Origin: Escherichia phage WPEC6
Direction: 5' to 3' (one strand)
Length of the DNA stretch: 64,000 bases
Sequence record: PV763039.1
The position numbers and the translations under genes are program-made. The notes under the pieces were generated by a model, which saw only the letters and a program-made list of their open reading frames with translations, was not told the DNA's origin and did not search any database. How positions within the stretch are numbered: position 1 is the first letter of the stretch; each line of letters opens with the position of its first letter. Shown one piece after another: positions 31,177 through 33,252 of the stretch.

Positions 31177-33252
31177 GTGGCAAAGAAAAAGGCAGCAGGT
31201 AGTTTAGCTGGAGTAGATATTGAGGTAAAGGCTCAACCAGGTAAACAGACTCTTGCAATGGATTTAATGCCAGAAGTTATGATTTATGGTGGTGCCGCTG
31301 GATGTGTTTCTGCTGAAACGGAATATCTTACAAAAGATGGTTGGAGGCAGATTAGTGAATATTCGGGAGAGGATATTTACCAATACAATCCTAAGAATAA
31401 GCGTTTAGAATTGGTAACACCTTATTTTGTAGAATACGATTTAAATGGAGATAACCTATACAGAATAACAAATGGTGTAGGATTATTCCAAGAACTTAGT
31501 ATGGAACACCGTTTTGTATTCTATAAGAAAAAGAAATCAAAGAAACATTTCGAGATTCTTGTAGGAGATCTTATTGCATTACAGCAAATAGGAAAACCCC
31601 TGCAAGGTTATGTAGAAAATCCATTCGGTAAACGTGTTCCTTTTAACATACCTGGTAAAAAGAGCACTTACTTAAAAATACACGAGGTTATTTCAACAGA
31701 TGATAAGAAATATTGTTTTGAGACTCCAAGCAGCTATATTGTCTTTAGACGTGGCGATCACTGCTTCGTTACTGGGAATAGCGGCAAGTCTCGTCTGCTA
31801 TTGCTGAAAGCTTTAAAATACGCCTACAAAGACCCTTTGTTTGGTGGAATACTTTTCCGTAAGAACACCACTGCTCACCGTAAACCAGGTGGTCTGTTTA
31901 CAGAAGCAAAACGTTTGTATCTTCCTTTACAACCACACGTAAAAGAAAGTACAATGGATATCATTTTTGAAGCCACTGGTGGTGGAACCCTCAAATTTGA
32001 CCATTTGGAAAATGATAACGTAACAGCAGAAACAAACCATCAGGGTACACAGTATTCAATGGTAGGTTTTGACGAGTTAACCCACTTCACACAATATGAA
32101 ATGCTCTATCTTCTGGGACGTATGCGTTCAGAGTCAGAAACAAGTTTCATGTTGTGCACATGTAACCCTGACGCAGATAGTTGGGTTTTGAATTGGGTGT
32201 TACCTTATCTTGATGAGGGTGGTTATCCTAGAGAAGATATGTGTGGTAAACAAAAATATTTCATCATTGTTAACGATGAACCTGTTTTTGCTGACACACC
32301 TGAAGAACTGAAAGAAAAATATCCAGAAAACTGTTTCATGGAAAACCCTAATACAGGGGAGACAGTTGTTATTGAACCACAAACTTTCGTATTTATTGGT
32401 GGGACAATATTTGATAACCCAGAACTCATTAGGCTTAACCCTAATTACTTAGCACAACTTAAATCACAAACAGCTATCAAAAGAGCACAGCTTCTGGACG
32501 GTTGTTGGTTTGCACGTATCCAGAAAGAATCTTTCTTTCAACGTGAATGGTTACATAAAATATCTTATAAAGATGTTCCTAACAATCTTAAACTAATGCG
32601 AGCATGGGATAAAGCTGTTTCAGTTCCTACAGAAACTTACCGTTATCCAGACTATACAACATCTGTCAAAATGGGTAAAGATCAAGATGGTAATATCTAC
32701 ATCTTTGGCGACTATGATTATGATGCTGTGGATGAGAAAAGTAAAATTTTCGGAAGGTTTCGAAGACTACCTGGGGAAAGGGATAACCTGATTCTAAATC
32801 AATGTAAGATTGATGGACCAGAAGTTACAGTAGTGCTTCCTAAAGACCCATCTGGTGCTGGGACAATAGAATACACAGAGTCTGCAAAGAAACTTATTCT
32901 AGAAGGTTTTGTTGTTAAACCAGATGCTATGCCAGGTAACAAGAAAAAGCTTCAGCGTTTTATGCCTTTTAGTAGTGCGTGTCAAAACGGTTTTGTTTAT
33001 ATTGTTGAAGATTCTTTCCCTAATGTGGAAACTTTAACCCACTTTTATAAAGAATTGGAATCTTTCAATGGTGAAAGATCTACAGCCACTATTAAAGATG
33101 ACATTCCCGATGCTGCTGCCTCTTGTTTTAATACTCTGTCAAAAGAGAATACTTTCAAAGCAGTAGCTATCCCTACAACAACAAATGCTCCTACAGGATA
33201 CAGTAGAATGAACAGCGGATTTCACCAACCGTATAGTGTCCGTAAAAGATAA
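31177..33252 (+). CDS. terminase large subunit (intein-containing precursor)
   Basis: GTG start after RBS AGGAGG; Walker A GGAAG/SGKS split by an insert; sits immediately upstream of portal-like gene. Confidence 0.7.
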   Translation: MAKKKAAGSLAGVDIEVKAQPGKQTLAMDLMPEVMIYGGAAGCVSAETEYLTKDGWRQISEYSGEDIYQYNPKNKRLELVTPYFVEYDLNGDNLYRITNGVGLFQELSMEHRFVFYKKKKSKKHFEILVGDLIALQQIGKPLQGYVENPFGKRVPFNIPGKKSTYLKIHEVISTDDKKYCFETPSSYIVFRRGDHCFVTGNSGKSRLLLLKALKYAYKDPLFGGILFRKNTTAHRKPGGLFTEAKRLYLPLQPHVKESTMDIIFEATGGGTLKFDHLENDNVTAETNHQGTQYSMVGFDELTHFTQYEMLYLLGRMRSESETSFMLCTCNPDADSWVLNWVLPYLDEGGYPREDMCGKQKYFIIVNDEPVFADTPEELKEKYPENCFMENPNTGETVVIEPQTFVFIGGTIFDNPELIRLNPNYLAQLKSQTAIKRAQLLDGCWFARIQKESFFQREWLHKISYKDVPNNLKLMRAWDKAVSVPTETYRYPDYTTSVKMGKDQDGNIYIFGDYDYDAVDEKSKIFGRFRRLPGERDNLILNQCKIDGPEVTVVLPKDPSGAGTIEYTESAKKLILEGFVVKPDAMPGNKKKLQRFMPFSSACQNGFVYIVEDSFPNVETLTHFYKELESFNGERSTATIKDDIPDAAASCFNTLSKENTFKAVAIPTTTNAPTGYSRMNSGFHQPYSVRKR
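31303..31779 (+). mobile_element. mini-intein (Hint domain, no homing-endonuclease domain) inserted in terminase P-loop
   Basis: starts with Cys in CVSAETEYLT (block A-like), SMEH block B-like, ends with Asn (VTGN) followed by Ser; removal of 159 codons restores GGAAGSGKS. Confidence 0.7.

Follow-up and report, generated by a model that had tools for sequence, protein, structure and literature searches.

The DNA analyzed here (termed the window) is a stretch of 64,000 nucleotides (nt) of Escherichia phage WPEC6 (sequence record PV763039.1). It contains the gene for the large terminase subunit (terL), in which the coding sequence for the Walker A motif (P-loop) is interrupted by a segment of 159 codons with the features of an intein. 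The TerL open reading frame displays a match to Pfam Terminase_6N (E=5e-17) and to PHROG 979, "terminase large subunit" (E=1.4e-216), and over its 2,076 nt it shows 100% identity with terL of ESCO37, WPEC1 and further Escherichia phages of the phAPEC8-like type. The genome is that of a Phapecoctavirus (phAPEC8-like, Stephanstirmvirinae) and the open reading frame at 31177..33252 is its TerL.

The Walker A junction and its presence or absence in homologues

The amino acid (aa) sequence of the TerL precursor reads ...EVMIYGGAAG / CVSAETEYLTKDGW...RRGDHCFVTGN / SGKSRLLLLK, where the slashes denote the predicted splice junctions. The codons at the junctions are those of Cys43 (TGT, 31303-31305), Asn201 (AAT, 31777-31779) and Ser202 (AGC, 31780-31782). 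Deletion of the 159 codons leaves a chain of 532 aa in which GGAAG is joined to SGKS, i.e. G39-A-A-G-S-G-K-S46, a canonical GxxxxGKS Walker A motif. The insertion is at the bond between Walker A residues 4 and 5 (G-A-A-G/S-G-K-S).

The spliced sequence gives a Terminase_6N (PF03237) match of 69.6 bits that covers profile positions 1-214, runs across the junction, includes Walker A and is above the gathering score. The match of the precursor is 62.7 bits and begins at residue 202, profile position 8. A phmmer search of the spliced TerL against the PDB gave no match, so that the junction could not be placed on a solved terminase.

A search with the spliced TerL sequence yielded 1,974 homologues and the best 120 of these were compared. 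A contiguous G-G-(A/S)-A-G-S-G-K-(S/T) sequence is present in at least 65 of the 120; the nearest of these are 62-64% identical and have chain lengths of 514-517 aa. TerL sequences with 67-99% identity all have an insert of 158-159 aa, and those at ~50-54% identity have either no insert or one of 146, 246 or 323-328 aa. All inserts among the 120 are at the identical bond, begin with Cys, end with (T/S)-G-N and are followed by Ser. A prediction made earlier from the letters of the window (termed the original prediction) had proposed that removal of Cys43 to Asn201 rebuilds a GxxxxGKS P-loop. The coordinates prove exact, and the motif that is rebuilt is the one found contiguous in the homologues. 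The alignment of the extein with intein-free terminases, suggested there as a check, shows that homologues without the insert exist and that the insert is not an integral part of the ATPase domain.

One intein-free relative, with 64% identity to the extein, displays the same TerL-portal synteny on a 141-kb contig. The DNA sequence of its empty site is GGTGCAGCAGGA/TCTGGTAAGTCA. An IS605 OrfB/TnpB (Cas12f-like) gene is found ~2.5 kb 5′ of an intein-free TerL (Logan ERR12405939 contig, 1-448); this gene is present in one of two otherwise identical phage contigs.

An intron or other element acting at the DNA level was also considered and was rejected on two grounds: there is no break in the reading frame, and selection on the insert is purifying at the protein level (see below).

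Profile, fold and conservation of the insert

Twenty-one inserts were aligned (alignment A1), and this alignment was the source of both a family profile and an AlphaFold2 model. The best match of the A1 profile in the PDB is 6zgq_A, the AceL NrdHF intein (E=3e-14), followed by PolII, RecA and DnaB inteins. The AlphaFold2 model (mean predicted local distance difference test score, pLDDT, of 87.1) shows a single Hint domain, all-beta with one helix. In a Foldseek search of the PDB with this model, 50 of the 50 matches listed have the Hint fold (inteins, bacterial intein-like (BIL) domains and hedgehog proteins), with 6zgq again at the top (E=1e-5). Canonical class 3 inteins match the model at the fold level only (6bs8 and 6riy, E about 1e-3). 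DnaE inteins appear only at ranks 33-35 of the fold list, and a closeness to DnaE-type inteins, proposed in the original prediction, is not borne out; the nearest characterized intein is AceL NrdHF.

With the insert as a single sequence, a phmmer search against the PDB gave noise only, and a word-indexed protein search yielded 5 close fragments only and was uninformative. A weak match to the Pfam family Intein_splicing is present in 3 of the 21 insert relatives, with a best E-value of 0.02. The search with Hint/intein hidden Markov models (HMMs) that had been proposed as a check is negative with Pfam and NCBIfam, and it is only the family profile and the fold search that reveal the intein. The lack of a Hint-domain match, named in the original prediction as a ground for refutation, would thus have led to a wrong rejection.

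The A1 profile detects 11,978 representative proteins at E<=1e-3 among 1.84 billion. Relatives found by tblastn are located in PhoH (an Acinetobacter phage), NrdA (T5-like Salmonella phages), primase/helicase (Pseudomonas KIL phages), RtcB (Bacillus and Pseudomonas phages) and other terminases (Av-05 and Vibrio phages). A sample of 59 best-match host proteins includes DnaB-like helicases, Toprim primases, RtcB, RecD-like, DEAD and PIF1 helicases, terminases and PhoH. The 25 commonest Pfam families in these 59 proteins do not include Intein_splicing. The family with the signature Cys1, Cys at block F position 4 (F:4) and Gly at block G position 6 (G:6) is large and is missed by standard HMM libraries.

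In 182 diverse complete copies, the set used for all family counts given here, the junction G..G/[S/T/C]-x-K-[S/T] is present 48 times. This is the equivalent Walker A position in many different ATPases; the PhoH copy, for example, has the junction GFAG/TSKT.

Salmonella phage SP3 (MG387042; NrdA locus 2128-6309) has two inteins in the large subunit of ribonucleotide reductase. Intein 1 (CYSADTEVLT...VCGN/S, after ANTQQ) is of the TerL-intein family. Intein 2 (CVAPETKILT...LAGN/C) looks unrelated and has a LAGLIDADG_3 domain.

The median size of the family copies is 315 aa and only nine are smaller than 175 aa. LAGLIDADG_3 is found in 9 of the 59 sampled host proteins. The relatives of 323-328 aa show an extra block with LAGLIDADG_3 matches after block B, and at this point the TerL copy has a short loop and one helix. 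Because this loop and helix replace the endonuclease block of the relatives, the TerL copy is a mini-intein. That the insert has no room for a homing endonuclease had been stated before, and this agrees with its length of 159 aa, the absence of an endonuclease HMM match and the single Hint domain of the model. The point where alignment A1 opens up for the endonuclease domain of larger relatives is the run KKKKSKK. The sequence YKKKKSKKHF (31522-31551, intein residues 74-83) is invariant across the 158-159-aa Stephanstirmvirinae-type inteins despite varying flanks. The basic run could be what is left of an endonuclease linker, or it could be functional in its own right.

Within the clade of 158-159-aa inserts, identity of intein and extein to the window copy declines in step, from 99/99.8% down to about 71/70%. 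In a comparison of the window with the phi92-like phage JohannJBalmer, intein and extein show proportions of nonsynonymous differences (pN) of 0.086 and 0.104, respectively, and ratios of nonsynonymous to synonymous rates (dN/dS) of 0.055 and 0.061, which are rough values since dS is about 1.7. The G+C content is 0.344 in the intein and 0.382 in the extein. As judged from these sequence comparisons, the intein is constrained as strongly as the terminase itself.

All phage records with a TerL of at least 80% identity break their alignment at the junction. In about 130 cultured intein-bearing phages there is a single matching TerL place in every record listed; as these phages form plaques, we infer that a working P-loop must be regenerated. 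Lack of an endonuclease, together with divergence in step with the terminase, argues for a fixed, vertically inherited intein. The picture suggested by the sequences is of an old and immobile intein that would have been inherited with the terminase across Phapecoctavirus, Justusliebigvirus and relatives, and kept splicing-competent.

The segment is an insertion, it is homologous to inteins, it has the Hint fold and the catalytic residues, and it is under purifying selection. Residues 43-201 of TerL very probably constitute a functional mini-intein that splices in cis, has the Hint fold and is devoid of a homing endonuclease. Splicing is the step that we infer, from sequence and model, and the intein is almost certainly active. 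The central proposal of the original prediction, a mini-intein that splits the TerL Walker A motif and on whose removal terminase activity would depend, is upheld by four independent lines: the precise presence/absence junction, the profile match, the Hint-fold model and the occurrence of the same element in unrelated hosts. The features are listed in Table 1.

Table 1. Position of terL, the putative mini-intein and its sequence blocks in the window.
Feature	Position	Strand	Remarks
Shine-Dalgarno AAGGAGG	31166..31172	+	4 nt 5′ of the terL GTG start; direct sequence reading
terL (large terminase precursor), open reading frame	31177..33252	+	691 aa + stop, GTG start; from the open reading frame list
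N-extein, residues 1-42	31177..31302	+	its last four residues open Walker A: G39-A-A-G42 (31291-31302)
Putative mini-intein, 159 aa, TerL Cys43-Asn201	31303..31779	+	insert presence/absence, profile match, Hint-fold model
Block A CVSAETEYLTKDGW, Cys1 at 31303-31305	31303..31344	+	C1, T6, G13 and W14 invariant in A1
Block B core S66-M-E-H69-R70-F71 (B:7, B:10, B:11, B:12)	31498..31515	+	aligns with S65/H68/R69/M70 of AceL NrdHF
Basic run K75-K-K-K-S-K-K81	31525..31545	+	loop where bigger relatives hold the LAGLIDADG domain
Block F start D133-D-K-K-Y-C138-F-E-T-P142	31699..31728	+	D133, K136, Y137 and C138 invariant in A1
Cys138 (F:4)	31714-31716	+	Cys138/Pro142 align with Cys124/Pro128 of AceL NrdHF
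Block G end T157-G158-N159 (G:5, G:6, G:7)	31771..31779	+	terminal Asn predicted to cyclise
C-extein, 490 aa	31780..33249	+	Ser+1 (31780-31782) is also the fifth Walker A residue; SGKS 31780-31791

Active site and proposed splicing route

The active-site residues of the TerL intein are C1, S66, H69, R70, F71, C138, P142, T157, G158, N159 and S+1. Three of the positions are invariant in the family: Cys1, His B:10 and Asn G:7 are each present in 182/182 copies. The others are Ser/Thr at B:7 (173/182), Cys at F:4 (179/182), Thr/Ser at G:5 (168/182) and Gly at G:6 (178/182). The residue at +1 is Ser in 101, Cys in 55 and Thr in 26 copies. Position B:12 is V, M, I, L or F, with Trp in 2/182. Three family members have Ser at F:4, and these retain Cys1. 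The S-M-E-H sequence that had been noted as a block B-like motif is at intein residues 66-69 (31498-31509) and contains the invariant His, and an Asn end followed by a Ser nucleophile, also noted before, is confirmed as N159/S.

In class 1 inteins the N-terminal nucleophile forms a linear (thio)ester, and F:4 is usually Asp. The penultimate His (G:6) is common in inteins but is not obligatory. The original prediction had termed block A "class-1". Cys1 is indeed present and invariant, but the class label is not established by it, as F:4 is Cys and not Asp.

A global alignment pairs the TerL intein sites with A1, S65, H68, R69, M70, C124, P128, T144, G145, N146 and S+1 of AceL NrdHF. In that intein the branched thioester of class 3 splicing is formed on the essential Cys124 (Hoffmann et al. 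2020, PMC7891396). His68 is held in place by Thr144, Gly145 cannot be replaced by His, and Arg69 partly stands in for the missing penultimate His (PMC7891396). Because Gly at G:6 is functional in AceL NrdHF and is present in nearly all family copies, the missing "HN" of the TerL intein is, by analogy, the normal state of the family and not a defect.

AceL NrdHF (PDB 6ZGQ) is the best match of the TerL intein in both sequence and fold. Both are mini-sized Hint domains (146 vs 159 aa) of phage/metagenome origin, with Arg at B:11, Gly at G:6 and a non-Trp hydrophobic residue at B:12 (Met in AceL NrdHF). They differ in that AceL NrdHF has Ala1, occurs naturally as two halves separated by a GIY-YIG gene, is located in the gene for a ribonucleotide reductase beta subunit and has been proven to belong to class 3, whereas the TerL intein has the invariant Cys1, is contiguous and lies in a terminase P-loop.

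Inteins without an N-terminal nucleophile are found in helicase-type proteins, including phage terminase large subunits, and mostly in the P-loop (Tori et al., PMC2807308). By definition, class 3 splicing is started by Cys F:4, needs no N-terminal nucleophile, and is further marked by Trp B:12 and Thr G:5 (PMC2807308, PMC5222942). The TerL intein displays two of these marks, Cys138 at F:4 and Thr157 at G:5, which align with Cys124 and Thr144 of AceL NrdHF; it has Phe71 at B:12 instead of Trp, and the N-terminal nucleophile Cys1 is present. The canonical class 3 inteins (WCT; MP-Be DnaB, Msm/Mch DnaB-1) resemble it in Cys F:4, Thr G:5 and Ser/Thr at +1, and also in their preference for P-loops of helicases and terminases and their proposed phage origin (PMC2807308, PMC5222942, PMC7664689). 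Unlike the TerL intein with its Cys1, Phe B:12 and Gly G:6, they combine Trp B:12 with a penultimate His and do not start with a nucleophile. A further group of inteins, described only as polyphyletic, pairs a Cys or Ser nucleophile at the N-terminus with Cys at F:4, as the TerL intein does.

Several observations weigh against the identification of the segment as a functional mini-intein. Four of the five AlphaFold2 models have a pLDDT of only 67-70, and the Foldseek TM-scores are moderate (0.5-0.6). The insert is without a match in Pfam-A (E<=1) or NCBIfam (E<=10); this silence is not counted against an intein because the family profile and the fold search succeed. Synonymous sites near saturation leave the dN/dS values rough, and no report of the excision of this intein or the ligation of its exteins was found in the literature. 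The replacement of the penultimate His by Gly158 and the presence of Cys at F:4 in place of Asp depart from textbook class 1. The missing curated match and the missing His also favor a different reading, in which the segment is a non-splicing Hint-like domain permanent in TerL, a cleavage-only domain of the BIL type, or a dead intein in a non-functional gene. This is very improbable. The insert is inside an eight-residue motif that is contiguous in over half of the best homologues, all nucleophiles and His B:10 are conserved under strong purifying selection, and the cultured, plaque-forming carriers show one TerL place in every record listed. BIL domains are found in variable regions of non-conserved or secreted proteins, are usually without a +1 nucleophile, and cleave instead of splicing. 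The motif that holds the TerL insert is the most conserved one in an essential ATPase, and the insert, unlike typical BIL domains, has Ser+1; it does not fit a BIL domain. As for the missing His, Gly at G:6 is functional in AceL NrdHF, where the change G145H kills activity (PMC7891396).

A functional mini-intein may splice by more than one route. Because Cys1 is absolutely conserved, a class 1-type first step in which it is used is indicated, and because Cys F:4 is almost absolutely conserved, it appears to be needed too. It seems moderately likely, from the conservation pattern, that splicing starts at the invariant Cys1 in a class 1-type manner with Cys138 (F:4) in place of the usual Asp. 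A possible but rather doubtful route for the same intein is class 3 or a relay, in which Cys138 would attack the Gly42-Cys43 bond, or take the acyl group from Cys1, to form a branched thioester that is then resolved to Ser+1; Cys1 would be dispensable or merely the first relay station. The closest characterized relative, AceL NrdHF, is experimentally class 3 (PMC7891396), and S(B:7), H(B:10), R(B:11), C(F:4), P(F:8/9), T(G:5), G(G:6), N and Ser+1 are common to both with matching spacing. Cys F:4 is nearly constant in the family, Ser is at +1 as in nearly all class 3 inteins (PMC2807308, PMC5222942), class 3 inteins prefer the P-loops of helicases and phage terminases, and WCT inteins that start with Ser1 or Cys1 exist (PMC2807308). 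However, residue 1 is not needed in class 3 and is usually Ala or Pro, whereas here it is Cys in every copy. In addition, Trp B:12 is absent (Phe here and Val, Met or Ile in relatives), Cys+1, rare in class 3, is found in 55 of the 182 copies, and the three members with Ser at F:4 retain Cys1. A speculative alternative is conditional splicing, restrained for example by a Cys1-Cys138 disulfide or a different signal, which would act as the post-translational switch on packaging that the original prediction had put forward. The two invariant active-site cysteines would fit this, and mycobacterial DnaB inteins are described as oxidative-stress sensors (PMC6195587). This appears unlikely, however: the sequence has no feature that calls for regulation, imprecise loss would be lethal and this fully accounts for an intein being fixed in an essential late gene, the cytoplasm of E. 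coli is reducing, and AceL NrdHF splices constitutively within minutes (PMC7891396).

For the class 1-type start at Cys1, the following series of steps is proposed. The translated intein would fold and convert the Gly42-Cys43 bond to a thioester, and the N-extein would then be moved onto the side chain of Ser202 (+1). Cyclisation of Asn201 would free the 159-aa intein, and an O-to-N shift would give the 532-aa terminase with an intact P-loop. The packaging ATPase would thus be able to bind ATP only after splicing, and the intein may survive because a failure of splicing would be lethal.

More tentatively, the phage-borne family with Cys1, Cys F:4 and (T/S)-Gly-Asn may connect class 1 and class 3 in mechanism, in that either both Cys residues are obligatory (an acyl relay from Cys1 through Cys F:4 to Ser+1) or Cys F:4 is sufficient. 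In that case the atypical class 3 intein AceL NrdHF would have arisen from this family independently of the WCT clade, and the two adjacent thiols could possibly make terminase maturation redox-sensitive.

Other terminase inteins, annotation and neighboring genes

P-loop inteins in phage large terminases are an established phenomenon, familiar from actinophages and thus not new here. The TerL1-a/b inteins are located in the Walker A motif of mycobacteriophage Terminase_1 proteins, and Terminase_6-type proteins had only C-motif inteins in the same survey (Kelley et al. 2016, PMC5050341). The TerL1-a/b inteins resemble the TerL intein in being Walker A inteins of a phage large terminase whose splicing is needed for the packaging ATPase, and in their sporadic distribution across phage clusters (PMC5050341). 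They differ in host protein, which is Terminase_1 as opposed to Terminase_6N, and in the bond: TerL1-a is between the invariant Lys and the next Thr and TerL1-b is one residue off, whereas here the bond (G/SGKS) is two residues before Lys. The lineage of the TerL intein probably differs from that of the mycobacteriophage TerL inteins.

No paper was found on inteins in phAPEC8-, phi92- or rV5-like terminases, and according to a 2024 paper (PMC11162368) coliphages are without reported inteins. An intein is named in none of the GenBank annotations seen for ~130 matching records; the listed ones call the protein "terminase large subunit", "hypothetical protein" or the like, with a single "large terminase with N-terminal endonuclease domain". 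The BASEL S5 table gives 0 inteins for the phi92-like phage EmilieFrey. To judge from its closest relative, "outra", EmilieFrey probably carries the insert, and if so the insert is uncounted in that table.

The intein is present in the sole TerL seen in phAPEC8-like and phi92-like Stephanstirmvirinae coliphages, including phages of the BASEL collection. Terminase phylogenies and length comparisons of these phages therefore include 159 foreign residues, and standard HMM libraries overlook an intein family with thousands of members. The kinship with AceL NrdHF makes the splicing chemistry a small question that is easily tested in an E. coli phage. A short cis-splicing intein native to E. coli, with Ser+1 and a two-cysteine active site, offers a tractable system for the evolution of class 3 from class 1, and the TerL mini-intein is also a candidate tool for protein engineering.

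In the window, two open reading frames directly 5′ of terL (30540..30932 and 30823..31167) have 110 nt in common, read in different frames. They are positional counterparts of the likewise overlapping genes annotated as i-spanin and o-spanin in phage JohannJBalmer, and the open reading frame 3′ of terL is the positional counterpart of the annotated portal gene in JohannJBalmer and Klebsiella phage 05F01. The open reading frame list of the window shows no free-standing homing endonuclease gene adjoining terL. A search for a second copy of the intein family elsewhere in the window found none, and no tRNA genes were found in the window.

Three phages named for hosts other than Escherichia deserve mention. 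Acinetobacter phage ABPW7, Campylobacter phage A110a and Klebsiella phage ZCKP1 have a TerL with intein that is 87-100% identical to those of phAPEC8-/phi92-like coliphages, and the host labels or the purity of the samples look doubtful.

The TerL of Escherichia phage Av-05 (NC_025830, locus 2911-4041) has an intein of ~240 aa of the same family at the same P-loop bond. The annotated coding sequence ends eight codons past the Walker B sequence "FIGFDE". This suggests that the Av-05 terL is broken a second time, whether by an intron, by a homing-endonuclease gene or by a frameshift, and is annotated as a fragment.

In Vibrio phage vB_CoeS_P1 (PV206818), the end of an "endonuclease VII" gene (locus 1572-2420) overlaps the start of the intein-containing TerL by one base. 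This gene could encode a free-standing nuclease tied to the 146-aa mini-intein allele.

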